Source: Eubacteriales bacterium
Lineage (GTDB): Bacteria > Bacillota > Clostridia > Oscillospirales > RGIG5299
Direction of reading: 5' to 3'
Length of the DNA: 64,000 bases
Assembly: GCA_045588575.1 (NCBI GenBank)
Contig: JAZNEJ010000008.1
Span: 197,492 to 261,491 of the forward strand
How positions within the stretch are numbered: position 1 is the stretch's first letter; each line of letters opens with the position of its first letter. The position numbers and the translations under genes were made by a program. Positions 9,448 to 63,661 of this stretch are shown here, in pieces. Below the pieces are notes generated by a model. It was not told where the DNA came from. It searched no databases and was given only the letters and a program-made list of their open reading frames with translations.

Positions 9448-9454
9448 GTTATTA

Positions 9455-9660: not shown

Positions 9661-9767
9661 TAAATAAAGGGTTTCGTGAGTTTTAAACACATTTAACACC
9701 CATAAAAGAAGAAGTAAAACTTCTTTATTATATTACACTACATTACAATAAAAAGAGGAAGAGTAAA

Positions 9768-10874: not shown

Positions 10875-10906
10875 AGCCAAAAAAACAGTTAAAGAGGAGG
10901 GGAGAT

Positions 10907-12085: not shown

Positions 12086-12094
12086 GGAGAAAAA

Positions 12095-14331
<2,237 letters not shown>

Positions 14332-14355
14332 TTTAGAGTATAGGAGAAAGACGCT

Positions 14356-19852: not shown

Positions 19853-19883
19853 AAAAGACGGTGAATTTCACCGTCTTTTTTTT
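19853..19883. terminator. bidirectional terminator between convergent genes
   Basis: AAAAGACGGTGA attt TCACCGTCTTTTTTTT. Confidence 0.7.
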
Positions 19884-21978
19884 ATGCCGAAAAATAATCG
19901 AAAACCGAGCGCGCAAGAGAACGGGCAACAACGTCTATGTTTTCTTCTTTTAAAAATTTATCATATTCGCAAATATTCGTCATATAGCCGCACTCGATTA
20001 TAATTGAGGGTAAAAACGGAGTGTGGCAAATTATGTAGTCGCTTTTTGAAGATGCTTTTAAAGGCCAATGTGAATATTTTGAAACGTTTTCTGAAACGGT
20101 GTCGGAGAGTCGGCGGCTGTGCTCGTTTGCAAAAATGGTTAAAATTCCGCTTCTTCCCAGCGGGTTTGCCGCTTCGCTCACCGCGTTAAAATGAATTGAT
20201 ATTCCAATGTCGGCGTTTTCACGCTGATACCACGTTTTAACCACCGATGCGTAAAGCGTTTCGGTTGTTTTTTCATTTCTCGAAATAACAACCTCGGCAC
20301 CGAGCGATTCAAGATAATGCTTGGTTTTGAGCGCCACTAAATAGTTAAGGTCGCGTTCCTTGAAATCGAAAGGACAGTCGGGACCTTGAGAGCCGCCAAC
20401 GTTAACCGAGTGGCCCGCATCGAGCATTATTTTTATGTTTGAAAGAGGCTTATCACCCGAATTTGCCTTTTTGGGAATGCGAAATTTTATAATAACCGAA
20501 TCGTTTTCAAAATAAGCATACCAACCCGAAAAATCGGTTTTTTCAAAGCATTTGAGGGTTATAGAGGTGTTAACGGACTCTTTTTTAATTTCAAAACCCT
20601 CAAAAAGAGGATTTTCAGATATGGCAAAACCATCTTTAAGCTCGGTGTTTTTCAGAACAATTTCAGCCCCGTTTTCCTTTTGCGAAACAGTGAAAAAAGG
20701 ATTTCCCTCGGCGCTGAATTTTAAAACAAAAAAGGTGTCTTCAATAAAAGAGTCTTGTAAAGAAAGAGAGGGAGGCGGAAGCTCTTCGGTTTCGGTAACG
20801 GTTACGTATTCCGTTTGAACGTAATAGCCTGAGGCAAGCAAAAAAACCTCAATTTCGGTGTCGTTTATTTTGTTTTGGGTTACAATTTTATCAACTATAA
20901 CGTCTTTAAGACCGTCGGGGGCATATTTGGAATTTTCGTTTGAGGTAACGGGAATTTTTTCAAATAAAAGGGGATATCCCGTGCCGTTTATTACCGCCGT
21001 TTTACCAATTTCACTCGGTTTTTCCGAGGCTTTGTTTTTTTCGGTTGTCTTTGCACCGAGCCTCGTTATTTTAAAGGTAAGCTCGTTTTCTCCGTTTTGC
21101 AAAACCACGGTGTTTTCACCGTAATTTAATTCTATTTTGGCGGTGAAAAGTCCGTTTGCGGTGCGTAAAACCTTGTTTCCGCCTGCGGTTAACGGAAAAT
21201 TCGGGTTGCTTCCGCCCGTTAAATAGACAACGGAATATTTCGTTTCAAAATTTCTCGATGATGGAATTCCAACGGTTAAATCGGTCATATTTTTTCTTAA
21301 AGCAGGCGCAAAAACCGATGAAACGGCATCGGATACCGCATTTTCATTAGAAAGAATTCTTAAATTATCATAAAAAATTATTCCGTTTGAATTTTCCGAA
21401 AGCGTCTCGGCGTAACATTCCAAAACCTTTTCACAGTTTTCGGTTTTTTCGGAATTTGCCCTGTAAAACGAAAAAAAGCTTTCGCCTTTTACGGCAAAAA
21501 TTTCATCTTCTTCTAAATAAAAAAAGGTTTTATGAGGGTATTTTGCTGCCAAAAAATCAGCGGTTTCGCGTGGAAGTGAAAAGTTAAAAAATATGCCCGA
21601 ATTTAACTCGCTTTCGGCGTAAAAGGCGGTGTTTTCCAAATTTTCAAGAGTAACGAAAAAGGAAAAACCGTCTTTGTTTCCCTTAAAATCGTTAATGCCG
21701 TTTGGCAAGGTTATAATGCCCGAAAGACCGATTGATTTATAAATTGAAACCGATTTTTCGGTTGGAGATGCATCAAAAACGAAGCCGAAAAAGCTTTTAT
21801 TCGGCTCGTAAAGCGTTTTAAATTGAGTGTAAAGATAGGGAAAAGCATCACGCTCGGGGGCAAAATCGCAAAACGGAAGAGAGGGCGCCGACAGACTTTT
21901 TTCGGGCGCTTTTTCACAGGATGAAAAAATAAAAAACGGGAAAATCAAGAAAATTAAAAATAAAAATGCCTTTTGCAT
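19882..21978 (-). CDS. N-acetylmuramoyl-L-alanine amidase (Amidase_3 C-terminal domain), lipoprotein-like
   Basis: The ATG at 21978 (MQKAFLFL...FSSC) follows a GAGGTGA RBS. The C-terminal 'IMLDAGHS...GISIHFNA...IIECGYM' region is typical of the CwlC/AmiC-type amidase fold. Confidence 0.78.
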   Translation of the reverse strand: MQKAFLFLIFLIFPFFIFSSCEKAPEKSLSAPSLPFCDFAPERDAFPYLYTQFKTLYEPNKSFFGFVFDASPTEKSVSIYKSIGLSGIITLPNGINDFKGNKDGFSFFVTLENLENTAFYAESELNSGIFFNFSLPRETADFLAAKYPHKTFFYLEEDEIFAVKGESFFSFYRANSEKTENCEKVLECYAETLSENSNGIIFYDNLRILSNENAVSDAVSSVFAPALRKNMTDLTVGIPSSRNFETKYSVVYLTGGSNPNFPLTAGGNKVLRTANGLFTAKIELNYGENTVVLQNGENELTFKITRLGAKTTEKNKASEKPSEIGKTAVINGTGYPLLFEKIPVTSNENSKYAPDGLKDVIVDKIVTQNKINDTEIEVFLLASGYYVQTEYVTVTETEELPPPSLSLQDSFIEDTFFVLKFSAEGNPFFTVSQKENGAEIVLKNTELKDGFAISENPLFEGFEIKKESVNTSITLKCFEKTDFSGWYAYFENDSVIIKFRIPKKANSGDKPLSNIKIMLDAGHSVNVGGSQGPDCPFDFKERDLNYLVALKTKHYLESLGAEVVISRNEKTTETLYASVVKTWYQRENADIGISIHFNAVSEAANPLGRSGILTIFANEHSRRLSDTVSENVSKYSHWPLKASSKSDYIICHTPFLPSIIIECGYMTNICEYDKFLKEENIDVVARSLARSVFDYFSA

Positions 21979-22036
21979 AAACTTCACCTCGTAAAACATT
22001 ATGCACAAGGCATAAAAACAATTCGGTTATAAAAAA

Positions 22037-25136: not shown

Positions 25137-25484
25137 GCGAGTAAATCGAGCAGTCGCGGCAGAAAAGGGCCGAAAGGCTTTCTGCTGAGGAAAGTCCGAG
25201 CTTCACAGGGCAGGATAACGGATAACGTCCGCCGGAGGCAACTCCCGGGAAAGTGCAACAGAGATATACCGCCTTCTTTAAGAAGGTAAGGGTGGAAAGG
25301 CGAGGTAAGAGCTCACCGAAGCCTATGGTAACATAAGCTTCCTGTAAACCCTATCCGAAGCAACATCGCTGCGGAACAAATGAAGCGGCCCGCTTCGTTC
25401 CCATGATGGCTTGAGGCAGTCGGCAACGGCTGTTCGAGATAGATGACTGCATAGAACAGAACTCGGCTTACGGATTTACTCGCA
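25137..25484 (+). ncRNA. rnpB: RNase P RNA (bacterial type A)
   Basis: Universally conserved 'GAGGAAAGTCCG' and 'ACAGAACTCGGCTTA' segments. P1 pairing is GCGAGTAAATC (25137-25147) with GATTTACTCGC (25473-25483). The 'GGTAAGGGTGGAAAGGCGAGGTAAGAGCTCACC' region is type-A-like. TTGACA lies at 25102-25107 and TATTATAAT at 25125-25133 upstream. Confidence 0.9.
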
Positions 25485-25569
25485 TTTTTCTTATACCTTA
25501 TATAATACTATAAAATAGACAAAAGTGCAATATTTATTTAAAGAAATCTCCTTGGGAGGAAAAAGCAAT

Positions 25570-49789: not shown

Positions 49790-50497
49790 ATGTCTTACTG
49801 TGTCAACTGCGGCGTTGAGCTCGGCGATGCCGAAAAGGCCTGCCCCTTGTGCCAAACGCCCGTTATAAATCCCGTATCTCCGTGGAAAGAGCCGCAAAAA
49901 AAGCCCTACCCCGACAGAGTAGATAAGCTTATGAGGGTGGTGGATTATAAATTCGGCGTGCGTCTTGCCGCGCTTTTGCTTATAATTCCCGTTTTTGTAA
50001 CGCTGCTTTGCAATATTGCGGTTAATAAGGAAATAAGCTGGTCGATTTACGTAATCGGCGGCGTAACCTGCTTTTTCGTTTGGGTTTTCCTGCCGCTTCT
50101 TTTCAAAAAAAGAAGACCTTACGTTTTCGTTTTGTTAGACGGTATTTCAACAGCCGCCTATCTTGCGGTAATAGCGCTTATGACGGGCGGATTGAATTGG
50201 TTTTTAACACTCGCTTTGCCGCTCGTTTCGGTAACGCTCCTTACAATAATGTTATTTATATTTATAGGACGTCGCAAAAAAATCTCACCGCTTCATAAAA
50301 TGGCTGCCTTTTCGCTCGGCATTGGAATTTTGTCTGTTGCAATTGAGCTGATAATAGACCTTTTCCTCTACTCTGCAATCGTTCCCGTTTGGTCGCTTTA
50401 CGTTTTAACGGTAACGGCGGTTTTTGCCGCGGTGTTTGCTCTCGTTGAAAGCAAAAAACGCTGGAAAGAGGAAATTATCCGCAAGCTTTTTTATTAA
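49790..50497 (+). CDS. zinc-ribbon membrane protein
   Basis: 235 aa with an N-terminal 'YCVNCGVEL...CPLCQTPV' zinc ribbon followed by five or six TM helices. Confidence 0.6.
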   Translation: MSYCVNCGVELGDAEKACPLCQTPVINPVSPWKEPQKKPYPDRVDKLMRVVDYKFGVRLAALLLIIPVFVTLLCNIAVNKEISWSIYVIGGVTCFFVWVFLPLLFKKRRPYVFVLLDGISTAAYLAVIALMTGGLNWFLTLALPLVSVTLLTIMLFIFIGRRKKISPLHKMAAFSLGIGILSVAIELIIDLFLYSAIVPVWSLYVLTVTAVFAAVFALVESKKRWKEEIIRKLFY

Positions 50498-50839
50498 AAA
50501 CTTTTCAAAAGAGTCTTTTTAAGACTCTTTTTTGTTTTCATAAAAACGCCTTGTTTTTGGCAAAAAATGCAAGAAAAGCTGCAAAATCAGCCTAAAAATT
50601 GCCGATTTTAATAAAAAATAAAAAATATTTAAAAAATGAAAACAAAATCAAAAAAGAGAGAGAAAACGAGCAAATAAGAGCAAATAAGAGAGAATAGAGG
50701 AAATAAATTGATTTTTTTGGTTTTAAGGTCTTGACAAGGTAAAAAATATAGTGTAATATATTGCAGTCGAAACGTAATAAATTCGTTTTAAAAAAAAGAA
50801 TAAGCGGTGTTAAAAACCGCACAGAGAGGAATAAAAAAC

Positions 50840-51265
50840 ATGAAAACCTTTATGGCAAGTGCAGAGAAGACCGAACGCAAATGGTTTATCATTGATGCAA
50901 AAGGTCAGCCTGTCGGCAAGGTAGCCGTTTTGGCAGCCGACATTTTAAGAGGCAAAGTTAAGCCTGAATTCACTCCTCATGCAGACTGCGGCGATTTCGT
51001 AATCGTAATCAACGCTAAAGAGGCAATTTTAACAGGCAAAAAAGCAGAACAGAAAGTTTACCGTCATCACACCGGTTGGGTTGGCGGCCTTAAAGAAATA
51101 AGCTACAAAAAGCTTATGGAAACATCTCCCGAAACCGTCATTGAAAAGGCAGTTAAAGGCATGATTCCCTCAACCACCATCGGCAGAGCTGCATTTTTAA
51201 GACTTAAAGTCTATGCAGGCGCAGAGCATCCCCATGCAGCACAGCAGCCTGAGCTTTGGAAGTAA
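50840..51265 (+). CDS. rplM: 50S ribosomal protein L13
   Basis: The ATG at 50840 (MKTFMASAEKTERKWFIIDA...) follows AGAGAGGA. Full-length L13 similarity. Confidence 0.95.
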   Translation: MKTFMASAEKTERKWFIIDAKGQPVGKVAVLAADILRGKVKPEFTPHADCGDFVIVINAKEAILTGKKAEQKVYRHHTGWVGGLKEISYKKLMETSPETVIEKAVKGMIPSTTIGRAAFLRLKVYAGAEHPHAAQQPELWK

Positions 51266-51280
51266 CGGAGGATTTGAAGA

Positions 51281-51682
51281 ATGTATACAGCTAAAAAAGA
51301 GTATTTTTACGGCACCGGCAGAAGAAAGAGCTCGGTAGCAAGAGTTAGAATTATGCCCGGCACAGGCGTAATCACCATCAACAACAGAGATATCGACGAT
51401 TATTTCGGTCTTGAAACCTTAAAGCTCGTCGTTCGTCAGGCATTCGAAGTAACCGAAACCCTCGGCAAATTCGACGTTATTGCAACCGTTTGCGGCGGCG
51501 GCGTTACCGGTCAGGCAGGCGCAATCCGTCACGGCACTGCAAGAGCATTGCTCCGCTACGATGCAGAGCTTCGTCTTCCCTTGAAAAAGGCAGGCCTCTT
51601 AACCAGAGACCCCAGAATGAAGGAAAGAAAGAAGTATGGCTTAAAGGCTGCACGTCGCGCACCTCAGTTCTCAAAGAGATAA
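51281..51682 (+). CDS. rpsI: 30S ribosomal protein S9
   Basis: 133 aa ending in the canonical '...RRAPQFSKR'. Confidence 0.95.
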
Positions 51683-51792
51683 TTTCGGCTTATGCCGTTT
51701 ACACAAAATGCTTCGCTTTATGCGGAGCATTTTTGTTTTTAAAAAATAATGAAAGCTCACAATTTTACTTGTGAGCTTTGTTCTTTTATGAT

Positions 51793-52245
51793 TTATAAAT
51801 TTGTGTGAAAATAATAGAGAATGTTGGTTTGAGTATCAAAAATGTAAAGATCTAAACGGTAAACGGTGGTAATACCGCCTCCCCAAATTTCTTCATCGGA
51901 GAAAAGAACGTAATAGTCCTCGGTGTCTATAATTGTTTTATCAAAATCATAGTCTTCAACAAATTCTTCACCGCTCGCTTTAAGAGCGCTCTCAAACTCC
52001 GCAAAATATACCTCTAAACCAGATATCGCAGAAGCGTCAAGTCTAACAAAAAGCTTATTTTTAGAAAGGTCTACGGAGTCGAAGTAATATTTTTTGTATT
52101 CGGTGTAATCACCCAGTCCGTAACGATACTGCTCTTCATATCCGTGATGACCACCTAAAGAGGTTAAAACCATTGTTGTATAATTGCAGGAGCTGAAAGA
52201 GAAAATCATCAAGATTAAAATCAAAACAGCGATAACCTTTTTCAT
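51793..52245 (-). CDS. putative lipoprotein
   Basis: The ATG at 52245 (MKKVIAVLILILMIFSFSSC...) gives a signal peptide plus lipobox. The longer track ORF adds an implausible leader. Confidence 0.55.
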   Translation of the reverse strand: MKKVIAVLILILMIFSFSSCNYTTMVLTSLGGHHGYEEQYRYGLGDYTEYKKYYFDSVDLSKNKLFVRLDASAISGLEVYFAEFESALKASGEEFVEDYDFDKTIIDTEDYYVLFSDEEIWGGGITTVYRLDLYIFDTQTNILYYFHTNL

Positions 52246-52602
52246 AAAACAACACCACGCTTTTTTCTTATTATAGCATAGAAATATAAAATTTTCAATA
52301 TTTTTTAAATTGCCGCTTTTTTTAAAAAATATAGACAAATTCAAAACATTGTGGTAAAATATAAAAAATTCACACAACGTTATAATCGGCGTATAATATT
52401 ATACGCGCTGAATAATTAAGGATTTTTTTGGCAATAGTGTTGTTAAAATCTTGAAAAAGGAGGCGTTTTTCTGAATAAGAATAACCTCGTTTCAAGCCTT
52501 TTTGAGAAGGTAAAAAACAAAGTTAAAACCGCATTCGAGCAAATTAAACTGTTTAAAAAAGCGGTTTTTGAAGAAAGAAGAGAAGATGCCGTTAAAAAAG
52601 CG

Positions 52603-53607
52603 GTGTCGCTTTTAATAGTGCTTTTTTCGGTTTGCGTAACGGGCTTTTTAACCGTTTTTCAGGCTGTAAACACAAATTCCGTGCCTGAATACGAGATTGA
52701 AGACGAGATGCTCGACGCAGGCCTTTATATGCAGCAATACACCTATAATCTTTTTAAATTAGACAGTCTTTTTTTATCGCGCGATTTGGAAACGGAGGAA
52801 GAAACAACCGAGCCGCTTCGCGAGGTAACGGTTATAGATGCAGGTGAAAAGCTCACTTTTTACAGCAAAGATATGACTGTAAAGCAGTTTTTAGAGGAAA
52901 ATTATATCGTTTTGGGCGAGCAAGACAGTTTAAACGTTTCGGAAGAGCTGCTTTTATCAGAGGTTGAAAAAATTGAAATCAACCGCGTTGGCGTATCGCT
53001 TCAAACCGAAATTCAATACACCGATTTTAAAACCAAAACCAGCCGAGTTTATTTTTTGGCGGCAATAAACCAAATTCCCGCAAACGTTGAGGGAGTTAAG
53101 GGTAAAACGAAATTAACCTACCGCTGCACCTATGAAAACGGCAAGCTGGTTGATAAGCAGTTGGTTAGCAAAAATAAAATTTCCAACCCCGTTGACGCTA
53201 TAAACTACGTCGTTTACACTCCCGAATGGGAACGCTACGGGTTAGATATGAGCTACGTTGTGGGCACGGCGCAATACCGCTCAACCGCATATTCCTCCGA
53301 GCAGAAGAATTTAAGCTACTGTACCGCAATGGGCTATCACACCGACTACGGAATAGCGGCGGTAAGCTATAAAAATCCGGGCGCGGTAAGAATGGGAATG
53401 TGGGTTTACGTTTCTTGTCCGGGGCTTAATTTCGATTACGGCTACGCCTACGTTTGCGATACTTCGCACAGCAGCAGTAACGACTGGATGGACCTTCATT
53501 TTGAAACTGTTCGCGAGGCAAAAAAATGGGGACGCCGCAATATAACCGTTTATATTCTTTCGGGCAAGCCGCCCTTTGTTGACGAGCCCGAGCGTTTTAA
53601 AAGATAA
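52603..53607 (+). CDS. YabE-like cell-wall protein (DUF348 - G5 - 3D/RlpA-like domains)
   Basis: An N-terminal TM helix, a 'KQFLEENYIVLGEQDSL' DUF348-like segment, a G5-like 'VKGKTKLTYRCTYENGK' segment and a C-terminal 3D domain ('AYVCDTSHSSSNDWMDLHF'). The true start may lie upstream (see findings). Confidence 0.72.
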   Translation: MSLLIVLFSVCVTGFLTVFQAVNTNSVPEYEIEDEMLDAGLYMQQYTYNLFKLDSLFLSRDLETEEETTEPLREVTVIDAGEKLTFYSKDMTVKQFLEENYIVLGEQDSLNVSEELLLSEVEKIEINRVGVSLQTEIQYTDFKTKTSRVYFLAAINQIPANVEGVKGKTKLTYRCTYENGKLVDKQLVSKNKISNPVDAINYVVYTPEWERYGLDMSYVVGTAQYRSTAYSSEQKNLSYCTAMGYHTDYGIAAVSYKNPGAVRMGMWVYVSCPGLNFDYGYAYVCDTSHSSSNDWMDLHFETVREAKKWGRRNITVYILSGKPPFVDEPERFKR

Positions 53608-53612
53608 ACAGT

Positions 53613-53641
53613 AAAAGACCGCTTTATTTGCGGTCTTTTTT
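53613..53641 (+). terminator. Rho-independent terminator
   Basis: AAAAGACCGC tttattt GCGGTCTTTTTT. Confidence 0.75.
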
Positions 53642-53653
53642 ATTTAATATCTA

Positions 53654-53682
53654 TTGACAAAACAGGGGTTTTATAGTATAAT
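53654..53682 (+). promoter_or_regulatory. purA sigma-A-type promoter
   Basis: TTGACA (53654-53659), a 17-nt spacer, then TATAAT (53677-53682). Confidence 0.6.
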
Positions 53683-53782
53683 CTTTTAGGTAAATACAAA
53701 GAAAACCAAGCTTTTCGTCGGTATTGCCGTCGGAAAGCTTTTTTTGTGCAAAAAACAGGTAATAAAACGGAGGAAACAAGCA

Positions 53783-55057
53783 ATGTTAACAGCTATCGTT
53801 GGAATTAACTGGGGCGATGAAGGAAAAGGCAGAATGGTTGACCTTCTTTCCGAACAGCAAGATATTGTCGTTCGCTATCAAGGCGGCAACAATGCAGGCC
53901 ACACCGTAATAAACCATCTCGGAAAATTCATTTTAAATCTTCTCCCGAGCGGCATTTTAAGACCCGAAATAGTAAACGTTATGGGTAACGGAATGGTTAT
54001 CGACATTGAGCATCTCACAAAAGAGATGAAAAATCTCACCGATGCAGGCGTTAAAATCACTCCCGATAATTTAAAAATAAGCGATAAGGCAGTTATTTGT
54101 ATGCCTTACCACGTAATGCAGGACTGCTTGGAGGAGGAGCGTCTTAAAGACGGTAAATACGGCTCCACCCGCAGAGGCATTGCTCCCGTTTACGGCGATA
54201 AATATTTGAAAAAAGCAATCAGAATAGGCGACCTTTTGGACGAAGAATATTTAAAGAAAATTCTTCCCGGAATAGTTGAGTGGAAAAACCTCACAATCGA
54301 AAAGGGCTACGGCGCAAAGAAAATTGAGGTTGAAGATATGTTTAACTGGCTTAAAACATACGGCGACCATTTAAAACCCTTTATAGTTAACACCACCGAA
54401 TATCTTTACGATGCCGTTAAAGCCGGCAAAAGAATTATGTTCGAGGCTCAGCTCGGCGCTCTTCGCGATATTGATTTCGGCATTTATCCCTACACCTCTT
54501 CTTCTTCGATGATTGCGGCATACGCTCCCATCGGCGCAGGTATTCCCGGCGTTAAGGTTGATAATACCGTTGGTATAGTTAAAGCATACTCCTCTTGCGT
54601 GGGCGAAGGTCCCTTTACTGCCGAAATGTTCGGCGATGAAGCAAAAGAGCTTCGCGATGCGGGCGGTGAATACGGCGCCGCAACCGGCAGACCGAGAAGA
54701 GTCGGCGGCTTTGATGCAGTTGCAACCGCATACGGCGTTAAAATTCAGGGCGCAAATGAAATTGCCCTCACCAAACTCGACGTTCTTTCCTACATGAAGG
54801 AAATTCCCGTTGTTGTCGGCTACGACTATAACGGCAAGGTTTTAACCGATTTCCCTGTTGGCGACGTTTTGAACAAATCCAAACCTATAATTGAATATAA
54901 AAAAGGCTGGCAGTGCGATATTTCCGCTTGCCGCAAAATGTCCGACCTTCCCAAAGAAGCCGTTGATTACGTCAATTTCATTGAAAAATCAATAGGAGCT
55001 CACATTAAATACGTTTCTGTCGGCGCTGAAAGAGAAGCCTATATTATCAACGACTAA
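53783..55057 (+). CDS. purA: adenylosuccinate synthase
   Basis: The ATG at 53783 follows GGAGGA. The protein has the 'GINWGDEGKGRMVD' P-loop and 'GGNNAGHTV' motifs. Confidence 0.95.
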   Translation: MLTAIVGINWGDEGKGRMVDLLSEQQDIVVRYQGGNNAGHTVINHLGKFILNLLPSGILRPEIVNVMGNGMVIDIEHLTKEMKNLTDAGVKITPDNLKISDKAVICMPYHVMQDCLEEERLKDGKYGSTRRGIAPVYGDKYLKKAIRIGDLLDEEYLKKILPGIVEWKNLTIEKGYGAKKIEVEDMFNWLKTYGDHLKPFIVNTTEYLYDAVKAGKRIMFEAQLGALRDIDFGIYPYTSSSSMIAAYAPIGAGIPGVKVDNTVGIVKAYSSCVGEGPFTAEMFGDEAKELRDAGGEYGAATGRPRRVGGFDAVATAYGVKIQGANEIALTKLDVLSYMKEIPVVVGYDYNGKVLTDFPVGDVLNKSKPIIEYKKGWQCDISACRKMSDLPKEAVDYVNFIEKSIGAHIKYVSVGAEREAYIIND

Positions 55058-55062
55058 CAACA

Positions 55063-55093
55063 AAAGAGCCGAGCAACCCTCGACTCTTTTTTT
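55063..55093 (+). terminator. terminator-like hairpin between purA and carB
   Basis: AAAGAGcCGAG caacc CTCGaCTCTTT followed by TTTT. It ends about 20 nt before the carB start. Confidence 0.55.
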
Positions 55094-55116
55094 AGAAAAA
55101 TAACGGAGGAAAAATT

Positions 55117-58100
55117 ATGCCTATCAATCCCAACATAAAGAAAACAGTTGTAATCGGCTCGGGCCCCATCGTTATAGGTCAAGCGGCGGAGTTTGACTAT
55201 GCGGGCGCTCAGGCTTGCCGTGTTTTAAAAGAAGACGGCGTTGAGGTTGTTTTAATAAACTCAAACCCCGCAACGATAATGACCGATGAAAAGATGGCGG
55301 CAAAGGTTTACATTGAGCCGCTCACCACAACCGTTGTTAAGAGAATAATTGAGAAGGAAAAGCCCGATTCAATTCTTTCAACTCTCGGCGGACAAACGGG
55401 ATTAACCCTTTCGATGCAGCTTGCCAAGGAAGGCTTTTTAGATAAAATGGGCGTGCGTCTTTTGGGCGCCGACCCCGAAACCATAGATAAAGCAGAAGAC
55501 CGCCAAAGCTTTAAAGATACCCTTGCTTCAATAGGAGAGCCCTTCGTTCCTTCAAAGGTTGTTAACACTCTCGAGGATGGCAAGACATTCGTTGATAACG
55601 AGGTGGGATATCCCGTTGTTATCCGTCCCGCATTTACCTTGGGCGGCACGGGCGGCGGCATTTGCTATAACGAAGACGATATGAACGAAATTTGCCAGAA
55701 CGGCTTAAAGCTTTCACCCATCACTCAGGTTTTGGTTGAAAAGTGCATAAGCGGCTGGAAGGAAATTGAGTTTGAGGTTATAAGAGACAGAGTCGGCAAC
55801 GCCATTGTTGTTTGCAGCATGGAAAATATCGACCCCGTTGGTGTTCACACCGGCGACTCAATCGTTGCCGCGCCCGCATTGACTCTTAACGAAAAAGATT
55901 TCAATATGCTCAAAACCTCGGCAATAAACATTGTTCAGGCATTAAAGGTTGAGGGCGGCTGTAACGTTCAGTTTGCACTTAATCCCGTAAATTCCGAATA
56001 TGCGGTAATTGAGGTTAACCCCAGAGTTTCCCGTTCTTCCGCACTTGCTTCTAAAGCAACGGGCTACCCCATTGCGAGAGTTGCAACCAAAATCGCAATA
56101 GGCTACACTCTCGATGAAATTACCGAAAACACCGAAAGATGCAAAAACGGCATCTTCGAGCCTGCGGTAGATTACATAGTTTTAAAATTCCCCAAATGGC
56201 CCTTCGATAAATTCGTTTACGCCAATAAAACGCTCGGAACTCAAATGAAGGCAACGGGCGAGGTTATGTCTATCGGCTCCTCCTTCGAGGAAGCGTTGAT
56301 GAAGGCGGTCAGAGGCGCCGAAATAAAGAAAAGCTCAATGAACACGCCTGCTTACGCATCTTGGAGCGTGGATGAGCTGATTGCCGAAATTAAAAAATGC
56401 ACCGACGAGCGCATTTTCTTGGTTTGGGAAGCGTTAAAAAGAGGCGTAACTCACGAGGAAATTTACGAAATCACCAAAATAGACTGGTGGTTCTTGGATA
56501 AGCTTCAGGGAATGCTCGATTTTGAAAGAGAAATGGCAGAAAGCGAGCTTACCGACGAGATTTACTTAAAAGCCAAAAAGCTTGGATATCCCGATAAGGT
56601 TATTGAAGAAATTTCGGGCAAAAAGATAAAGAACAGAAAGCTTGCAACCTATAAGGTTGTTGATACCTGCGCCAAGGAATTCAGAGTAACCTCTCCTTAT
56701 TTCTATTCGAGCTTCGACGGCGAGCCCTGCGAGGCAACCGACTTTATTAAAAATAACAAAACCGATAAAAAGACGGTTATAGTTTTCGGCTCGGGTCCCA
56801 TAAGAATAGGTCAGGGCATTGAGTTTGACTATGCTTCGGTTCACTGCGTTTGGGCGCTTAAAGAAGCAGGCTACGACGTGGTTATAGTAAATAATAACCC
56901 CGAAACCGTTTCAACCGACTTCGATACTGCCGACCGACTCTATTTCGAGCCGCTCACAACCGAGGACGTTGAGAGCATTTTAGAGGTTGAAAAGCCCTAC
57001 GGCGTTGTTGTTGCATTTGGCGGTCAAACCGCAATTAAGCTCACCAAATTCCTCTCTGAAAGAGGCGAAAATATTTTAGGCACTCCCGCCGATTCCATTG
57101 ATGCGGCTGAAGACAGAGAGCGCTTCGACGCGCTTTTGGAGCGTTATAAAATTTGCCGTCCCGCAGGACATACCGTAATGACCGAGGAAGAGGCAATTAA
57201 AGCCGCAACCCAGCTCGGCTACCCCGTTTTAATGCGTCCGTCTTACGTTTTGGGCGGTCAGAATATGATAATCGCATTCAGCGAGGCCGACATCAAGGAG
57301 TATATGAAAATTATACTCGCGCAAAACATTGAAAACCCCGTTTTAATAGACAAATATTTGGGCGGCACCGAAATTGAGGTAGACGCCATCTGCGACGGCG
57401 AGGATATTTTAATCCCCGGCATAATGGAGCATATCGAAAGAGCGGGCATTCACTCGGGCGACTCTATTGCGGTTTACCCCGCTTGGAACGTTTCCGACAA
57501 AATGAGAGAAAGAATAGTTGACGTTACCAAAAACCTTGCGCTTGAGCTTAACACCAAGGGACTTATAAATATCCAGTATCTCATTTATCAGGGCGAGCTT
57601 TACGTAATTGAGGTTAACCCCCGTTCTTCAAGAACCGTTCCCTATATAAGCAAGGTTACCAAAATTCCCATGGTAGACCTCGCAACAAGAGCAATGCTCG
57701 GCGAAAAAATTAAAGATATGGGTTACGGCACCGGTCTTTATAAGGTTTCACCCTACGTTGCAATTAAGGTTCCCGTTTTCTCCTTTGAAAAGCTTCAGAA
57801 TTTAGATACGCATCTCGGCCCCGAAATGAAATCAACGGGCGAGGTTTTGGGCATTGCGGCAACAATGGAGGAGGCTCTTTATAAAGGCCTTTCAGCCGCA
57901 GGATATACCCTCAAAAAAGAGGGCGGCGTTTTCATAACCGTCAGAAACAGCGATAAGCACGAGGTTTATGAGGTTGCCAAAAACTTCTATGAGCTTGGCT
58001 TTAAGCTCTACGCAACCGAAGGCACCGCAAAGGTTATAAGAGATGCAGGTATGGAGGTTGAGGTTGTTGCAAAAATTCACGAGGGCAACAATAACACCAT

Positions 58101-59163
58101 AAGCCTCATTGAAAGCGGAAAATTAAGCTATGTTGTTTCCACCTCAACCAAGGGAAGAATGCCCGAAAGAGACAGCGTTAAAATTCGTCGCAAGGCAGTT
58201 GAAAGAGCAATTCCGTGCCTCACATCAATTGACACGGCAAATGCGGTTGCCGCTTGCTTAAAGAGCAAATACAGTCAGCACTCCACCGAGCTCGTTAACA
58301 TCAACGAGATGAGAAAAGAGCGTCAGTGCCTTAACTTCATAAAATATCAAACCGCAGGAAACGACTTTATTTATTTCGATTGCTTTAACCAAAAAATAAA
58401 CAATCCCGAAGGCTTGGCGGTAAGACTTTGCGACAGACATTTCGGCATAGGCGGCGACGGTATAGTTTTGATATTCCCCTCCGATAAAGCAGACGCCGAA
58501 ATGAAAATGTATAACTTAGACGGCTCCGAGGGCAAAATGAGCGGCAACGCTTTAAGAGGTGTTGCAAGATATCTTTACGACAGCAAGAGAGTAAACAAAA
58601 CCGAAATGTTAATCGCCACGGCGGCAGGCGAAAGAAAGGTAACGCTTCATAAAATGTACGATGAGGTTTCCTCGGCGTCGGTTGAAATGGGCAAAGCCGA
58701 GCTTAGCCCCGCAAAAATCCCCGTTCTTTTAGACGATGAAAGAGTAATTGCAAAAACCGTTAAATTCGGCGGCAAGGATTACGATATAACCTGCCTTGCA
58801 ATAGGAAATCCGCACTGCGTAATTTTCACCGATAACGTTATGAACGTTGATATTGAAAAGGTTGGTCCTCTCTTTGAAAACGACCGTCTTTTCCCTGAAA
58901 GAGTTAACACCGAATTCGTTCAGGTGCTCGATTCCGAAACGCTCAAAATGCGAGTTTGGGAAAGAGGAAGCGGCGAAACGTGGTCTTGCGGCACGGGTGC
59001 GGCGGCAGCTGCGGTTGCAGCCGTTTTAAACGGACACGCCGAAAAAGGAAAAGATATTAAGGTTAAAATTGTTGGCGGCGAAATAACGGTAAATTATACC
59101 GATGAGGGAATAACTCTTGCAGGAAACTGCGCAAAAATATTCGAAGGCACCGCAATAATATAA
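55117..59163 (+). CDS. carB: carbamoyl-phosphate synthase large subunit fused to a C-terminal DapF-like (diaminopimelate epimerase fold) domain
   Basis: A single 1348-aa ORF. Residues 1 to about 1070 are a complete CarB, with two ATP-grasp halves and an MGS-like domain. From about nt 58330 the sequence reads 'LNFIKYQTAGNDF...MSGNALRG...GNPHCVIF...ERGSGETWSCGTGAAA', which are DapF hallmarks. Confidence 0.88.
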   Translation: MPINPNIKKTVVIGSGPIVIGQAAEFDYAGAQACRVLKEDGVEVVLINSNPATIMTDEKMAAKVYIEPLTTTVVKRIIEKEKPDSILSTLGGQTGLTLSMQLAKEGFLDKMGVRLLGADPETIDKAEDRQSFKDTLASIGEPFVPSKVVNTLEDGKTFVDNEVGYPVVIRPAFTLGGTGGGICYNEDDMNEICQNGLKLSPITQVLVEKCISGWKEIEFEVIRDRVGNAIVVCSMENIDPVGVHTGDSIVAAPALTLNEKDFNMLKTSAINIVQALKVEGGCNVQFALNPVNSEYAVIEVNPRVSRSSALASKATGYPIARVATKIAIGYTLDEITENTERCKNGIFEPAVDYIVLKFPKWPFDKFVYANKTLGTQMKATGEVMSIGSSFEEALMKAVRGAEIKKSSMNTPAYASWSVDELIAEIKKCTDERIFLVWEALKRGVTHEEIYEITKIDWWFLDKLQGMLDFEREMAESELTDEIYLKAKKLGYPDKVIEEISGKKIKNRKLATYKVVDTCAKEFRVTSPYFYSSFDGEPCEATDFIKNNKTDKKTVIVFGSGPIRIGQGIEFDYASVHCVWALKEAGYDVVIVNNNPETVSTDFDTADRLYFEPLTTEDVESILEVEKPYGVVVAFGGQTAIKLTKFLSERGENILGTPADSIDAAEDRERFDALLERYKICRPAGHTVMTEEEAIKAATQLGYPVLMRPSYVLGGQNMIIAFSEADIKEYMKIILAQNIENPVLIDKYLGGTEIEVDAICDGEDILIPGIMEHIERAGIHSGDSIAVYPAWNVSDKMRERIVDVTKNLALELNTKGLINIQYLIYQGELYVIEVNPRSSRTVPYISKVTKIPMVDLATRAMLGEKIKDMGYGTGLYKVSPYVAIKVPVFSFEKLQNLDTHLGPEMKSTGEVLGIAATMEEALYKGLSAAGYTLKKEGGVFITVRNSDKHEVYEVAKNFYELGFKLYATEGTAKVIRDAGMEVEVVAKIHEGNNNTISLIESGKLSYVVSTSTKGRMPERDSVKIRRKAVERAIPCLTSIDTANAVAACLKSKYSQHSTELVNINEMRKERQCLNFIKYQTAGNDFIYFDCFNQKINNPEGLAVRLCDRHFGIGGDGIVLIFPSDKADAEMKMYNLDGSEGKMSGNALRGVARYLYDSKRVNKTEMLIATAAGERKVTLHKMYDEVSSASVEMGKAELSPAKIPVLLDDERVIAKTVKFGGKDYDITCLAIGNPHCVIFTDNVMNVDIEKVGPLFENDRLFPERVNTEFVQVLDSETLKMRVWERGSGETWSCGTGAAAAAVAAVLNGHAEKGKDIKVKIVGGEITVNYTDEGITLAGNCAKIFEGTAII

Positions 59164-59170
59164 CCGAAAT

Positions 59171-59210
59171 AAAAAGGCTCACACGAAATTCGTGTGAGCC
59201 TTTATTTTTT
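59171..59210. terminator. bidirectional terminator
   Basis: AAAAAGGCTCACACGAA att TTCGTGTGAGCCTTT followed by ATTTTTT. Confidence 0.8.
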
Positions 59211-59570: not shown

Positions 59571-59945
59571 GTGATTAAAACGGAAATTTTTTTAACTTGT
59601 GCAAAAGCTTTTTTGGTGGGCGGCTTAATTTGTATGCTCTCGCAAATTTTAATAGATAAAACCGCGCTTACTCCCGCAAAAATTCTTGTAATTTTGCTTG
59701 GCTTCGGAATGCTTTTGGGAGCTTTCGGCATTTACGACTATATAATTGATTTTGCCTCTTCAGGTGCAACCGTGCCCATTTCGGGCTTTGGAAACGTTGT
59801 TAGTCAGGGCGTTATAAAGGCTGTTTCGGAAAAGGGATTTTTGGGAATTTTCACGGGCGGATTAACCGCGGCTTCGGGCGGAATTGCCGCCGCAATAGGC
59901 TTTGCTTTTTTAATGGCTGTTATTTTTAAGGCAAAAAGAAAATAA
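59571..59945 (+). CDS. spoVAEB: stage V sporulation protein AE-B (SpoVAC/SpoVAEB family)
   Basis: 124 aa. 'LVGGLICMLSQILID...LTPA' and 'GATVPISGFGN' match the SpoVAEB pattern. Confidence 0.78.
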   Translation: MIKTEIFLTCAKAFLVGGLICMLSQILIDKTALTPAKILVILLGFGMLLGAFGIYDYIIDFASSGATVPISGFGNVVSQGVIKAVSEKGFLGIFTGGLTAASGGIAAAIGFAFLMAVIFKAKRK

Positions 59946-60094: not shown

Positions 60095-63000
60095 ATGCGT
60101 TTAAATTCGTTAACCATTCAGGGTTTTAAATCCTTTCCCGATAAAATAAATATAGATTTTACCGATGGCCTTACCGCCATAGTCGGCCCCAACGGAAGCG
60201 GAAAAAGTAACATTTCCGATTCTATTCGCTGGGTTTTGGGCGAGATGAGCGCCAAGTCGCTTCGAGGCGGCAAAATGGAGGACGTTATCTTTAACGGCAC
60301 CAAAATAAGAAAGCCCTACGGCTTTGCAGAGGTATCGCTCACGTTAGATAACTCCGACCGCCACTTTAACTACGACTTCAACGAAATAACCGTTACCAGA
60401 AGGTATTTCCGCTCGGGCGAGAGTGAATATTTCATAAACAGGCAGCAGGTTCGTCTTAAAGATATAAACGAGCTGTTTATGGACACGGGCCTCGGCAAAG
60501 ACGGCTATTCGATGATAGGTCAGGGAAAGATAAGCGAAATTCTTTCGTCAAAGAGCGATGACCGCCGTCAAATCTTTGAGGAAGCGGCGGGCATTTCGAA
60601 ATTCCGCTATAAGAAAAACGAAGCCGAGCGAAAACTTGCGGCAGCCGAGGATAATCTTCTTCGCTTAAACGATATAATCACCGAGCTTGAAGCAAGAGTA
60701 GGCCCTCTTAAAGCCGAAAGCGAAAAGGCAAAGAGATATTTAACCCTTTTTGAAGAGCGCAAGGGCTTGGAGGTTAACGTTTGGTTAGACGCTATCGACA
60801 GAATGACCGAAACCGTGAGAATTGCCGAGGAAAAATACCGCATTGCAAAATTAGACCTTGAATCAGCAGAGGCGGCAAGCGAAAAGACCAACGAAACCAT
60901 TAACGCTCTTTTTGCCAAAACGGCGGAAATAAACGTTGAAACCGACGAGATTTTACATAAAATCGAAGAGCTTAAAGCAAGACTTTCGGAGGGCGACGGC
61001 AGAGCAATTGAAATTAAGGCAAATTCCGAAAGAAACTTAAACGATATTGAAAGAATTAAAAACGAAATCGGCGGCGGCGACGAAAGAAAGGCCGAGCTTT
61101 TAAAAGAGCGCGACGAGCGTCTTTTGAAGGTTAAGGAAAACGAAGAAAAAATCGCCGCTTTAAAGGCCGAAATGGAAAATCATCTTTTGCAAGACGCTCT
61201 TTTCTCACGTCAAACAGGCGAAAACAGCGAAAAAGCGGAGTTAATTAAAAATAAAATTTCCGAAAATCAGAGCCTTTACACATCGCTCTTGGTTGAGGCG
61301 GGAAGCGTTGGCACCGAAATTTCGGTTGCCGCAAGCGACATTGAGAGAATGAAGCTTCAAGTCAGCACGCAAGAGGCTGAGGTTCTCCGCCGTAAAAAGA
61401 TAAAGGAAGATTTCGAAAGAAAGCTAACGGAGATTGCTTCGAGAAGAGATAGCCTTAAAAACGTTTTAAACGGTTGGGCAATTAAAACCGCAACCAAAGA
61501 GTCGGCGGCAAAAGAAGCAGGTGAAAAACTTAACGCTTTTATCTCGAAGGTAACCGCGCAAAAAGACCGCTTAAATCTTTTAAGCGATATGGAGAAAAAT
61601 TACGTTGGATTCTATAACAGCATAAAAGCAGTTATGGACGCCTCTTCAAAGGGTGCGCTCCGAGGAATTAAAACCACCGTTGCCGAGGCTATTAAAACCG
61701 ATAACCGTTATGCGCTTGCAATGGAAACCCTTTTGGGTAATGCGCTCCAAAACATAATCACCGACAGTGAGGAGTCGGCAAAGGCCGCCGTTGAATATTT
61801 AAAAGCAAACGATTTGGGCAGAGCCACCTTTCTTCCTCAAACCTCGGTTAGAGGCGGAATGTTAAACGAAGCCGAAATAAAGAATTTCAAGGGATATGTC
61901 GGCATTGCGTCCGACCTTGCAAAATGCGCTCCCGAATATAAAAACGTTATTGAATTTTTGCTTGGCAGAAGCGCCGTAACCGAAACAATCGGCGATGCCA
62001 TTAAGCTTGCAAAGGCGTTTAACTACCGTTTCAGAGTGGTAACGCTCGACGGTCAGCTCATAAATGCGGGCGGCTCCATTACCGGCGGCTCATCAATCAA
62101 GCGCGTTGGCGTTTTCACGAGAGCAAACGAAATTGAAGATATTAAGAGCTCGCTTAAAAATGCCGAGGCGGAGGAAGCAAAGCTTAATGAGGCGTTAAAA
62201 GCCGCCGAATCGGAATATAACGAGCTTAAAGCAAAAAGCGAGGGCGCCGAGGCGGAATTAAGAACCGCAGAGGAAGAATTCATTAAAGCCGAGGCCGATT
62301 CCAAACACGCAAACCTTGTTTTTGAAGCGGCAGAGGAAGCTTTTTCGGCTCTTATGCTTTCGGTTTCTTCCAAGGAAAGCTTCAAGGCGGAGCAGGAAAG
62401 AAAGCGTTTGGATAACGCAAAGCGTGCCGCCGAGTGCGAAGAAATTTCCAAAAAGCTTAACGCCGAACTTTCAACTCTTTTGGGAGAGGGAAGCGATATT
62501 GAAGCAAAGAAAAAAGAGCTTAACGATAAAATTAACGAGGGCAGACTTGAAATATCGGGCGTGTTAAAAGATATTGAAGCCCAAAAAATGATGATTTCCG
62601 AAACCGAAAGCCGCATTTTCGAGCAAGAGAAATTTGCAGGCGAAAAGGAAGAAGAAATAAAGGCAATTTTAGAAAGAGAAGAGCTTTTAAAGAAAGAGCT
62701 TTCGGAAATAATAAACGGCAAAAAGCTTCTTGAAGACGGAATTGAGGCAGGCCACGAGGAAATAAGACGTCTCAGAGTTGAAAGAGACGAGGCGGAAAAG
62801 AAGGCAACCGAGCTTCGTCAGAAGGAAAAGGCAGATACCGACCTTATTGCCGCATTAAAGGCCGAAACCGCAAAGCTTGAAAACAAGAGCGAAAGCGCAA
62901 GAAACGAATACGACGTAATCGTAACGAAAATGTGGGACGAATATGAGCTCACCTTAACCGAGGCGGAATCGCTTCGAAACGCCGAAACCGATTTGGCTTA

Positions 63001-63661
63001 TGCAAACAAGAGAATTACCGAAATCAAAAAAGAGGTTAAGTCGCTCGGAAACGTAAACGTTGCGGCAATTGAAGAATATGCCGAGGTAAGCGAGCGTTAC
63101 GAAACTTTAAGCACGCAGTATAAAGACGTTACAACCGCAAAAACCGAGCTTGAAAAGATAATAGGAGAACTCACCAAGGAGATGCGTCAAATTTTCGAGG
63201 TTCAGTTTGCCGTTATCAACAAGCATTTCGATGCGGTGTTCAAGGAGCTTTTCGGCGGCGGCGAGGCATCGCTCGTTTTGGAAGAGCCGAACGACGTGTT
63301 AAATTCGGGCATTGATTTCAGAGTTGCCCCTCCCGGAAAGGTTATAAGAAATATGAGCTCGCTTTCGGGCGGTGAGCAAGCGCTCGTTGCCATTGCGCTC
63401 TATTTTGCAATTTTAAAGGTTCGTCCCGCACCGTTTTGCGTGCTTGACGAAATTGAGGCGGCGCTTGACGACGTTAACGTAGTCCGCTTTGCCGAATATT
63501 TAAAAACCGTAAACGATAAAACTCAGTTTATAGTAATCACTCACCGTCGAGGCACCATGGAGGCTGCCGACGTTCTTTACGGCGTAACGATGCAGGAAAA
63601 GGGCGTTTCGAAGCTTTTGGTTATTAACATTAACGACGTTGAGAAGAAATTTTTAAACTAA
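60095..63661 (+). CDS. smc: chromosome segregation protein SMC
   Basis: 1188 aa with Walker A 'GPNGSGKSN', long coiled coils, a hinge, the 'LSGGE' signature and Walker B 'FCVLDEIEAALD'. Confidence 0.96.
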   Translation: MRLNSLTIQGFKSFPDKINIDFTDGLTAIVGPNGSGKSNISDSIRWVLGEMSAKSLRGGKMEDVIFNGTKIRKPYGFAEVSLTLDNSDRHFNYDFNEITVTRRYFRSGESEYFINRQQVRLKDINELFMDTGLGKDGYSMIGQGKISEILSSKSDDRRQIFEEAAGISKFRYKKNEAERKLAAAEDNLLRLNDIITELEARVGPLKAESEKAKRYLTLFEERKGLEVNVWLDAIDRMTETVRIAEEKYRIAKLDLESAEAASEKTNETINALFAKTAEINVETDEILHKIEELKARLSEGDGRAIEIKANSERNLNDIERIKNEIGGGDERKAELLKERDERLLKVKENEEKIAALKAEMENHLLQDALFSRQTGENSEKAELIKNKISENQSLYTSLLVEAGSVGTEISVAASDIERMKLQVSTQEAEVLRRKKIKEDFERKLTEIASRRDSLKNVLNGWAIKTATKESAAKEAGEKLNAFISKVTAQKDRLNLLSDMEKNYVGFYNSIKAVMDASSKGALRGIKTTVAEAIKTDNRYALAMETLLGNALQNIITDSEESAKAAVEYLKANDLGRATFLPQTSVRGGMLNEAEIKNFKGYVGIASDLAKCAPEYKNVIEFLLGRSAVTETIGDAIKLAKAFNYRFRVVTLDGQLINAGGSITGGSSIKRVGVFTRANEIEDIKSSLKNAEAEEAKLNEALKAAESEYNELKAKSEGAEAELRTAEEEFIKAEADSKHANLVFEAAEEAFSALMLSVSSKESFKAEQERKRLDNAKRAAECEEISKKLNAELSTLLGEGSDIEAKKKELNDKINEGRLEISGVLKDIEAQKMMISETESRIFEQEKFAGEKEEEIKAILEREELLKKELSEIINGKKLLEDGIEAGHEEIRRLRVERDEAEKKATELRQKEKADTDLIAALKAETAKLENKSESARNEYDVIVTKMWDEYELTLTEAESLRNAETDLAYANKRITEIKKEVKSLGNVNVAAIEEYAEVSERYETLSTQYKDVTTAKTELEKIIGELTKEMRQIFEVQFAVINKHFDAVFKELFGGGEASLVLEEPNDVLNSGIDFRVAPPGKVIRNMSSLSGGEQALVAIALYFAILKVRPAPFCVLDEIEAALDDVNVVRFAEYLKTVNDKTQFIVITHRRGTMEAADVLYGVTMQEKGVSKLLVININDVEKKFLN

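Follow-up and report, generated by a model that had tools for sequence, protein, structure and literature searches.

This study revealed that one open reading frame (ORF) in a 64,000-nucleotide stretch of an Eubacteriales genome (contig JAZNEJ010000008.1; the whole stretch is referred to as the window) encodes a single polypeptide, in which a complete carbamoyl-phosphate synthase (CPSase) large subunit, CarB, is joined seamlessly to a full-length module of the diaminopimelate (DAP) epimerase family, DapF. This module is folded and under selection; it has kept the DAP pocket and has lost the canonical first base, the first catalytic cysteine being replaced by serine. What is new concerns the whole family: the loss of this cysteine appears to have recurred among CarB-DapF fusions, with the pocket retained. 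We tentatively favour the explanation that DAP binding, in a sensing or scaffolding role on CPSase, and not fast turnover, is what selection has maintained in the fused module. The appropriate description of the protein is a CarB with a fused DapF-family module whose dyad is Ser/Cys, rather than an established bifunctional CPSase/DAP epimerase.

The fused polypeptide and its active site

The reading frame opens with an ATG and continues through 1348 codons to a TAA, with no internal stop. Its parts, and the residues on which the argument turns, are the following.

55117..59163, + strand: carB::dapF fusion ORF, 1348 codons plus TAA
55117..58272, + strand: complete CarB, residues 1-1052, comprising the pre-ATP-grasp/ATP-grasp pair twice, the oligomerisation domain and, at 950-1036, the MGS-like allosteric domain (NF003671, Pfam)
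58273..58332, + strand: CarB C-terminal tail and junction, residues 1053-1072, ...STELVNINEMRKERQCL, kept across the fusion family
58333..59160, + strand: DapF module, residues 1073-1348, with both DAP_epimerase half-domains (TIGR00652, Pfam, AlphaFold2 model)
58540..58542, + strand: Ser1142 (AGC) at the site of the first catalytic Cys (Cys73 in E. coli/H. influenzae numbering)
58558..58560, + strand: Gly1148 (GGT), where the CGNGxRC motif has its second Cys (at least 95% conserved in the family)
58987..58989, + strand: Cys1291 (TGC), the second catalytic Cys, kept (equivalent of Cys217)

With regard to the CarB half, residues 1-1052 matched the CarB equivalog model NF003671 with 1450.3 bits (cut-off 599), and TIGR01369 gave 1394.6 bits (cut-off 1027). 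Pfam recognised CPSase_L_D1 and CPSase_L_D2 twice each, CPSase_L_D3 at residues 424-499 and MGS at residues 950-1036. The full-length equivalog match, the duplicated halves, the oligomerisation domain and the MGS-like domain were therefore all found, and adjacency to carA was the only property of a CarB, among those examined, that was lacking. The equivalents of E. coli K954, T974, T977 and K993, which we take to be the phosphate-binding effector residues, are also kept. Compared with CarB proteins in general (NF003671/TIGR01369; E. coli structure 1bxr), the window protein shares the full-length match of 1450 bits, all domains and these presumed effector residues, and differs by about 276 additional C-terminal residues, which form the DapF module. 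It also differs in being preceded by purA and a terminator instead of carA, which in the fusion relatives overlaps the start of carB.

In the alignment with E. coli CarB (1073 aa), 'SVQEM' at positions 1064-1068 pairs with 'NINEM' of the window. The natural end of CarB is therefore located near residue 1070, and the linker comprises only about 2-3 residues. The DapF half has no start of its own: CTT stands at codon 1072, and no Shine-Dalgarno sequence accompanies the nearest ATG in frame, that of M1065 (58309-58311).

The DapF equivalog model TIGR00652 matched residues 1073-1346 over model positions 3-268 of 270 with 251-254 bits (cut-off 114.65). Two DAP_epimerase stretches (PF01678) correspond to the two half-domains, and the best PDB sequence matches of the module were all DapF. 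An AlphaFold2 model of residues 930-1348 reached a predicted local distance difference test score (pLDDT) of 88.8 and a predicted template modelling score (pTM) of 0.74, and its comparison by Foldseek with the DapF structures 2otn, 9mro and 3ejx gave template modelling scores of 0.84-0.92.

In solved DapFs, the residue aligned with Ser1142 is the first catalytic Cys ('SCGNGLRC' in 2otn), and this column is Cys in 232 of 232 reference DapFs. The losses of Cys in the active-site region of the window comprise Ser1142, Gly1148 and Ala1296, the last of which changes the usual 'GTGACA' of the family to 'GTGAAA' (Cys1296Ala). His1233, Glu1282 and Cys1291 are intact. Forty-six columns reach at least 95% conservation among the 232 Cys/Cys DapFs, and the window keeps 43 of them, the only departures being C1142S, C1148G and L1323I. 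The DAP-contacting residues, which we take to be Asn11, Asn64, Gly74, Asn75, Asn157, Asn190, Glu208, Arg209, Gly218 and Ser/Thr219 of the H. influenzae enzyme, correspond to N1082, N1133, G1143, N1144, N1231, N1264, E1282, R1283, G1292 and T1293. The resulting pattern, NNGNNNERGT, is that of 210 of the 232 Cys/Cys DapFs. A scan of the columns co-varying with loss of the first Cys, which could have exposed a compensating catalytic residue, yielded no new Cys, His, Asp or Lys, and the changes were conservative only (S1285N, I1146L and similar).

The module thus resembles DapF (TIGR00652/PF01678; 2otn, 9mro, 3ejx, 1gqz, 4ijz) in its two-half-domain fold, its equivalog-level score, its DAP-contact residues, its GNPH and ERG.GET motifs and its second catalytic Cys, and the first catalytic Cys is the one expected feature that is missing. 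It differs from DapF in this Ser, in the Gly at the nearby conserved position 1148, in the lack of its own start codon and in its fusion to the C-terminus of CarB. These results are in agreement with an earlier reading of the window made from the sequence only (hereafter the sequence-only reading). This had described 1348 uninterrupted codons, a CarB part running to an end comparable to its natural C-terminus, with only three linker residues before DapF, a DapF half without a start codon or ribosome-binding site, a full epimerase-type sequence (now scored by TIGR00652 at 254 bits), the AGC codon at 58540-58542 in place of the first catalytic Cys, and retention of the second one (Cys1291, TGC). 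The profile searches that it had advised set the domain borders at 1-1052 for CarB (NF003671) and at 1073-1346 for DapF (TIGR00652).

Recurrent loss of the first catalytic cysteine

The serine is an inherited trait of the lineage. The nearest relative, P0003 (contig L019), is 71% identical and shares with the window the AGC codon, the R-G change and the GTGAAA motif. P0003 was considered as a free-standing Ser-DapF and rejected, since its reading frame, which includes the coding sequence of the CarB tail, runs unbroken to the edge of the contig; P0003 thus derives from a fused gene of which only a fragment is present. AGC is also the codon of this independently assembled relative, which excludes the base-call error for TGC that the sequence-only reading had allowed for. 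The broader possibility of an artefact, in which a missed stop or frameshift turned two genes into one and TGC was misread as AGC, can draw on the single substitution that separates the two codons. It is effectively refuted by the in-frame junction in more than 100 independent assemblies and five GTDB genomes, by the AGC, Cys1148Gly and Cys1296Ala common to the window and P0003, and by the deposition of the exact window protein in NCBI on a 336-kb contig, where it forms a singleton cluster at 90% identity.

A second Ser clade comprises L001-L003 and P0059, and the CarB part of this clade is the closest to that of the window (70.8% identity). Its Ser codons are TCG or TCC. From TGC, either AGC or TCN can be reached in one step, but no single synonymous change converts one of these Ser codons into the other, and the two serines are therefore most likely independent, the sequences pointing to two separate origins. 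Within L001-L003 the Ser was kept despite the synonymous codon change.

The family alignment contained 279 DapF modules, of which 134 were N-terminally extended, that is fused, and 133 were free-standing-like. The first Cys was replaced in 30 of the 134 fused proteins, by Gly, Ser, Ala and in one case Phe, and several of these proteins also lack the second Cys. In contrast, replacement was observed in 4 of the 133 free-standing-like proteins, at least one of which is a fragment of a fused gene (Fisher p = 1.5e-6 for fused versus free-standing-like, with kinship ignored). Loss of the catalytic Cys thus appears to be rare in free-standing DapF. On a neighbour-joining tree, parsimony required at least nine changes at this site.

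The pocket did not follow the cysteine. The NNGNNNERGT contact columns were unchanged in nearly all fused variants without the first Cys, including the G/S and S/A clades in which both Cys are lost. Between the window and P0003, 45 of 46 invariant columns were identical, compared with 150 of 230 other columns (p = 6.6e-7). Comparable figures were obtained for six further pairs without the first Cys; the S/A pair was identical in 46 of 46, as were L005 and P0087, compared with 127 of 229 other columns for the latter pair. In the Ser clade L001-L003, the ratio of nonsynonymous to synonymous substitution rates (dN/dS) was 0.03-0.06 for the DapF part and 0.02-0.03 for CarB, values which are approximate because synonymous sites are saturated. 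These ratios indicate that the DapF module of this clade is under strong purifying selection.

This conservation bears on the idea that the module is a decaying relic, in which an epimerase made redundant by a second dapF, by Ddh or by uptake of lysine or DAP would be drifting to loss and be kept because its deletion would damage CarB. Some signs are compatible with decay: Cys-less variants lie on somewhat longer branches, the DapF/CarB distance ratio within the Ser clade is 1.6-2.4, compared with 1.24 for one Cys/Cys pair, and Ddh is known to bypass DapF in related Clostridia, one Clostridium of the same broad group having both routes (PMC4176475). Nevertheless, we regard a relic as highly improbable, given the dN/dS of 0.03-0.06, the absence of frameshifts or truncations in any full-length member, and the 45-46 of 46 invariant columns, with all ligand contacts, that stay constant across 12-45% divergence in several Cys-less clades. 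The module thus shows what is expected of a ligand-binding pseudoenzyme domain, namely loss of a catalytic residue from a fold and pocket under purifying selection, although Ser may still support some chemistry.

The fusion family and its gene neighbourhood

Relatives were sought with the last 333 residues of the protein (CarB tail and DapF), which gave thousands of matches. The best 120 of these, which were inspected, were mostly proteins that combine an MGS with a DAP_epimerase domain and come from independent assemblies (ENA, JGI, NCBI, Logan), labelled, where named, as Oscillospiraceae, Ruminococcaceae, Acutalibacteraceae, Christensenellales, Ruminococcus bicirculans and R. difficilis. Among Oscillospiraceae/Ruminococcaceae-type Clostridia, over 100 independently assembled genomes or metagenomes encode the junction in frame. 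The fusion is not a peculiarity of one genome but a widespread family with a conserved junction. The sequence-only reading held that interest would fall if the fusion were common and already annotated as bifunctional. It is common, but the annotation of the named fusion proteins reads either 'carbamoyl-phosphate synthase large subunit' or 'diaminopimelate epimerase, partial', and none is called bifunctional.

The recommended search of related genomes for CarB proteins longer than 1300 aa recovered full-length fused genes of 1346-1350 aa in five GTDB species representatives (L001-L005), and none of the full-length members contained a frameshift or truncation. Relatives from the scan of genome contigs were at most 59% identical to the window, and the metagenome scan gave nothing closer than these. 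After clustering at 50% identity, the fusion was confined to a handful of clusters, the other top matches being free-standing DapFs of 270-295 aa.

In the window, as in the family, the CarB tail passes straight into the N-terminal strand of DapF within a single ORF. The junction ...TELV(N/D)IN.MR.E... is conserved in the window (ELVNINEMRKE), in L001-L005 and in P0122, and E1058, L1059, I1062, N1063 and R1066 are at least 90% conserved in an alignment of 60 sequences (A1). Because the junction is conserved, the sequences suggest a single origin of the fusion family.

The gene order of the relatives points to how the fusion may have come about. In all five genome loci (L001-L005), carA lies immediately upstream and overlaps the start of carB; pyrG lies downstream of the fusion in L001 and L002, whereas the fusion of L005 stands at the end of an arg cluster, whose five upstream genes were named from size and N-terminal sequence only. 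The closest free-standing relatives, L006 (10010-13624) and L007 (9989-13826), have dapF followed by pyrG and by a gene of 392-395 aa that is read as dapL from its N-terminal sequence only. A mixed pyrimidine/DAP cluster, dapF-pyrG-dapL, probably preceded the fusion. The simplest origin, and probably the correct one on this gene order, would be read-through between adjacent carB and dapF in a carA-carB-dapF-pyrG cluster. Direct proof in the form of carB next to a free-standing dapF was looked for in L006 and L007, but neither has carB within 10 kb, and no unfused carB-dapF pair was recovered among these loci.

A conserved protein of about 190 aa (MNNILLATGS... / MDSALVISCSEKG...) is encoded directly upstream of carA in L001 (5241-5816), L003 (5195-5770) and L004 (5390-5959), in the last case after a gene whose N-terminal sequence resembles glutamine synthetase. 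This protein may be a regulator of the carA-carB::dapF operon.

Other architectures were also encountered. In P0099 and P0104 (ENA, 558 aa), serine hydroxymethyltransferase contributes its N-terminal 250 residues, which are continued in frame by the final ~35 residues of the CarB tail (CLTSIDTANALADCLKSKYSQISTELVDINDMRDEKMKL) and by a Cys/Cys DapF; each protein is either a real product of deletion or recombination of the carB::dapF gene, or a chimeric assembly. P0237 (776 aa) is a different fusion, in which an N-terminal DapF with the first Cys kept (CGNALRS) is followed by the middle and C-terminal domains of a Mur ligase (MurE-like), an architecture that would join the enzyme producing meso-DAP to the enzyme adding it. 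Two distant fused relatives, P0163 (1046 aa) and P0215 (692 aa), have a degenerate-looking CarB half, with only partial ATP-grasp matches and no MGS match, next to a Cys/Cys DapF; P0163 keeps the CarB tail ...LITLNDMRKSKQEL. This pattern of decay is opposite to that of the window lineage.

The surroundings of the fusion gene in the window contain the following elements.

53654..53682, + strand: promoter-like site TTGACA-17-TATAAT, 12/12 consensus positions, upstream of purA
53744..55057, + strand: purA, adenylosuccinate synthase (NF002223, 474.6 bits)
55062..55096, + strand: moderate terminator-like hairpin with one bulge (stem-loop 55062-55090), followed by a T-run (-10.8 kcal/mol, z = -2.58)
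55105..55109, + strand: Shine-Dalgarno sequence GGAGG, 7 nt 5' of the ATG
59173..59210, + strand: intrinsic terminator, strong (also delimited as 59173-59203), with a stem of 14 bp and a T-run, 10 nt 3' of the stop codon

The position held by carA in related loci is occupied by purA. The order found, purA / terminator / carB::dapF / terminator, differs from the carA-carB::dapF(-pyrG) context of the family; it is a derived arrangement, and the absent carA is an exception among the fusions. The sequence-only reading had already remarked on purA in place of carA, on the terminator-like hairpin just before the ribosome-binding site of carB, and on the lack of a nearby carA. The NF002223 match and the folding of 55062-55090 (T-run, -10.8 kcal/mol) support the first two observations, and the third now extends to the whole 64-kb window. 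There, carA was not detected, next to carB or elsewhere, when three CarA proteins of the family served as tblastn queries, when GATase motifs were sought or when ten mid-size ORFs were examined with Pfam. A second carB, a second dapF, pyrG and dapL were likewise not found in the 64 kb.

The hairpin with its T-run ends about 9 nt 5' of the GGAGG, and no more than about 20 nt separate the hairpin from the ribosome-binding site. As this gap leaves no room for a promoter, transcription of carB::dapF must pass the purA terminator or start inside purA. An Rfam search of the purA-carB spacer gave no regulatory RNA, the hairpin being its sole element. The site at 53654-53682 is the only strong candidate promoter, and its position suggests that it could drive carB::dapF as well, through read-through.

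Several further observations concern the window and its organism. Downstream of carB::dapF lie spoVAE (59571-59945, 132.8 bits) and smc (60095-63661), which indicates that the organism is probably an endospore-forming Firmicute. A replication-origin-type cluster occupies 8074-16890 (dnaA at 8074, dnaN at 9768, recF-like at 10907, gyrB at 12382 and gyrA at 14356). The fusion gene is located about 47 kb from dnaA on the same strand, and the cumulative GC skew is positive throughout. A class A bacterial RNase P RNA (25138-25486, + strand, 277.7 bits) lies immediately 5' of a gene for a class-I tRNA synthetase (Trp/Tyr-type) at 25525. Two ORFs on the - strand, 871-3999 (1042 aa) and 19882-22008 (708 aa), had no NCBIfam match at E <= 1e-40. 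Five ENA metagenome contigs of 0.6-4 kb (L014-L018; samples ERZ28594747, ERZ27318230, ERZ27318224, ERZ28594442 and ERZ28594829) are 98.8-99.8% identical to 50221-54911 of the window, where rplM, rpsI and purA lie. Other metagenomes thus contain this species as well, and none of these contigs extends as far as carB.

Possible roles of the fused module

DAP binding is most likely the property under selection, since the first Cys has been lost at least nine times, the pocket is invariant and such loss is rare in free-standing DapF. A binding module is preferred because the Gly, Ala, Phe and double-loss clades conserve it as strongly as the Ser clades do. Such a module would be a dimer-forming domain that opens and closes with DAP occupancy and, sitting 2-3 residues past the allosteric domain of CarB, could modulate or scaffold CPSase. 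The activity of CPSase, and hence the supply of pyrimidine and arginine precursors, would then be tuned to the status of DAP as a cell-wall and lysine precursor. Bulk epimerisation of LL- to meso-DAP would be performed by a second DapF or the Ddh bypass, or would not be needed, and the Ser/Cys form may keep a slow or direction-biased epimerase activity. A more far-reaching version, in which the whole DapF fold was taken over as a DAP-sensing allosteric or oligomerisation module of CPSase, with a catalytic Cys that became dispensable and was repeatedly lost, the window being one case, seems to us somewhat unlikely.

A regulatory role of this kind has a precedent in E. coli, where DapF activates RppH. 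Binding of RppH leaves the epimerase rate unchanged, and the monomeric Y268A variant, with undetectable epimerase activity, still stimulates RppH (PMC6061791; PDB 6d13). In both systems a DapF protein regulates another enzyme by contact, which for the window is a proposal. However, RppH is an RNA pyrophosphohydrolase and a non-covalent partner of a DapF with both Cys, whereas the partner in the window would be a covalently attached CPSase.

Several points weigh against the binding role. The effect of DAP on CPSase is itself a proposal derived from sequence data. Most fusion members (~78%) keep both Cys; these are probably ordinary bifunctional enzymes, and the fusion itself then needs no regulatory rationale. 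The nucleotide-effector site of CarB looks intact from its residues, which leaves no regulatory gap to fill. The degenerate CarB halves of P0163 and P0215, attached to Cys/Cys DapFs, argue against an obligate coupling of the two halves. The inter-domain confidence of the AlphaFold2 model is moderate (junction pLDDT 69-75), and its pTM of 0.74 is suggestive at most of packing between the domains. Finally, Ser is the one replacement still able to perform acid/base chemistry, it arose twice and was kept through a synonymous change, and the sister proline-racemase superfamily includes an epimerase with a natural Ser-Cys dyad (PMC4113996).

This last point leads to the main rival account, which we consider possible but less likely: the module would be the working DAP epimerase of the cell, using a Ser/Cys dyad, and the fusion a neutral result of gene adjacency. 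The equivalog-level score of 254 bits, the intact pocket residues together with His1233, Glu1282 and Cys1291, the strong purifying selection, and the two independent origins of Ser with its preservation through the TCG/TCC change are all consistent with this account. DapF activity is also to be expected in a group whose free-standing relatives adjoin dapL, as read from its N-terminal sequence. The natural Ser93/Cys255 enzyme, 4-hydroxyproline 2-epimerase (UniProt B9K4G4, Avi_7022; PMC4113996), has the same cofactor-independent two-base fold with one catalytic Cys naturally replaced by Ser, and is active. It belongs to another branch of the superfamily (13-19% identity, Foldseek), acts on another substrate and is a stand-alone protein. 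By analogy, it indicates that a Ser/Cys dyad can work, not that the dyad of the window does. On the other hand, when Cys was changed to Ser in a DapF-family racemase in the laboratory, most of the turnover was lost and the open form was favoured (PMC11602996), from which a much reduced rate would be predicted for the window module. The engineered C73S and C217S DapFs (PDB 2q9h, 2q9j) were made as slowed variants for crystallisation. The window lineage has also lost the near-invariant Cys1148. Moreover, sister clades with Gly, Ala, Phe or neither Cys conserve the module equally, which argues that catalysis is not what holds it there.

A one-base enzyme was also considered, in which Cys1291 alone would catalyse another reaction on DAP or a DAP-like compound, such as elimination, dehydration or a one-directional stereo-inversion. 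In the proline-racemase superfamily, which has the same fold class by Foldseek, a Cys-to-Thr change turns racemases into trans-3-hydroxy-L-proline dehydratases (PMC4113996). Like the window module, these enzymes (Cys/Thr or Ser/Thr; PDB 6r76) have lost one acid/base residue of a DapF-like fold and retained a pocket, and there one-base chemistry results; the strong conservation of the pocket after Cys loss would fit such a change. Nevertheless, the dehydratases have altered substrate pockets and genome contexts, whereas the DAP-specific contacts of the window are unchanged, with nothing pointing to a new substrate, and no neighbouring genes suggest a new pathway. Clades that lost both Cys conserve the module too. 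On these grounds we judge a one-base enzyme to be improbable.

The two functions put forward by the sequence-only reading, a bifunctional enzyme and a ligand-binding module, both remain the leading explanations, and the family data lean towards the second without being decisive. Its suggested link between carbamoyl-phosphate supply and DAP metabolism gives way to read-through as the simpler account. As that reading had anticipated, the architecture appears uncharacterised. Our literature search found no paper on the CarB-DapF fusion, on a natural Cys-less or Ser/Cys DapF or on a DapF pseudoenzyme, and a search for C73S data gave nothing relevant.

The two halves of the fusion, CPSase and DapF, are each textbook enzymes and targets for antibacterials. 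Their covalent fusion, apparently unstudied and abundant in gut and rumen Clostridia, offers an easy experimental system. Cultured Ruminococcus bicirculans and R. difficilis carry the fusion, and cultured Ruminococcus species have the Cys/Cys form for comparison. The repeated loss of Cys with the full DAP pocket retained may serve as a natural experiment on how two-base racemases become Ser/Cys enzymes or ligand-binding pseudoenzymes. It is also a warning that the fused proteins should not be annotated as active DapF when lysine or peptidoglycan pathways are reconstructed from metagenomes. If the more far-reaching version above is correct, the module would be the first natural DapF-family pseudo-epimerase and would bring a new class of effector for CPSase. 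If it regulates CPSase, it would form a new link from cell-wall precursors to nucleotide metabolism, with the supply of pyrimidine and arginine precursors coupled to the status of cell-wall and lysine precursors.

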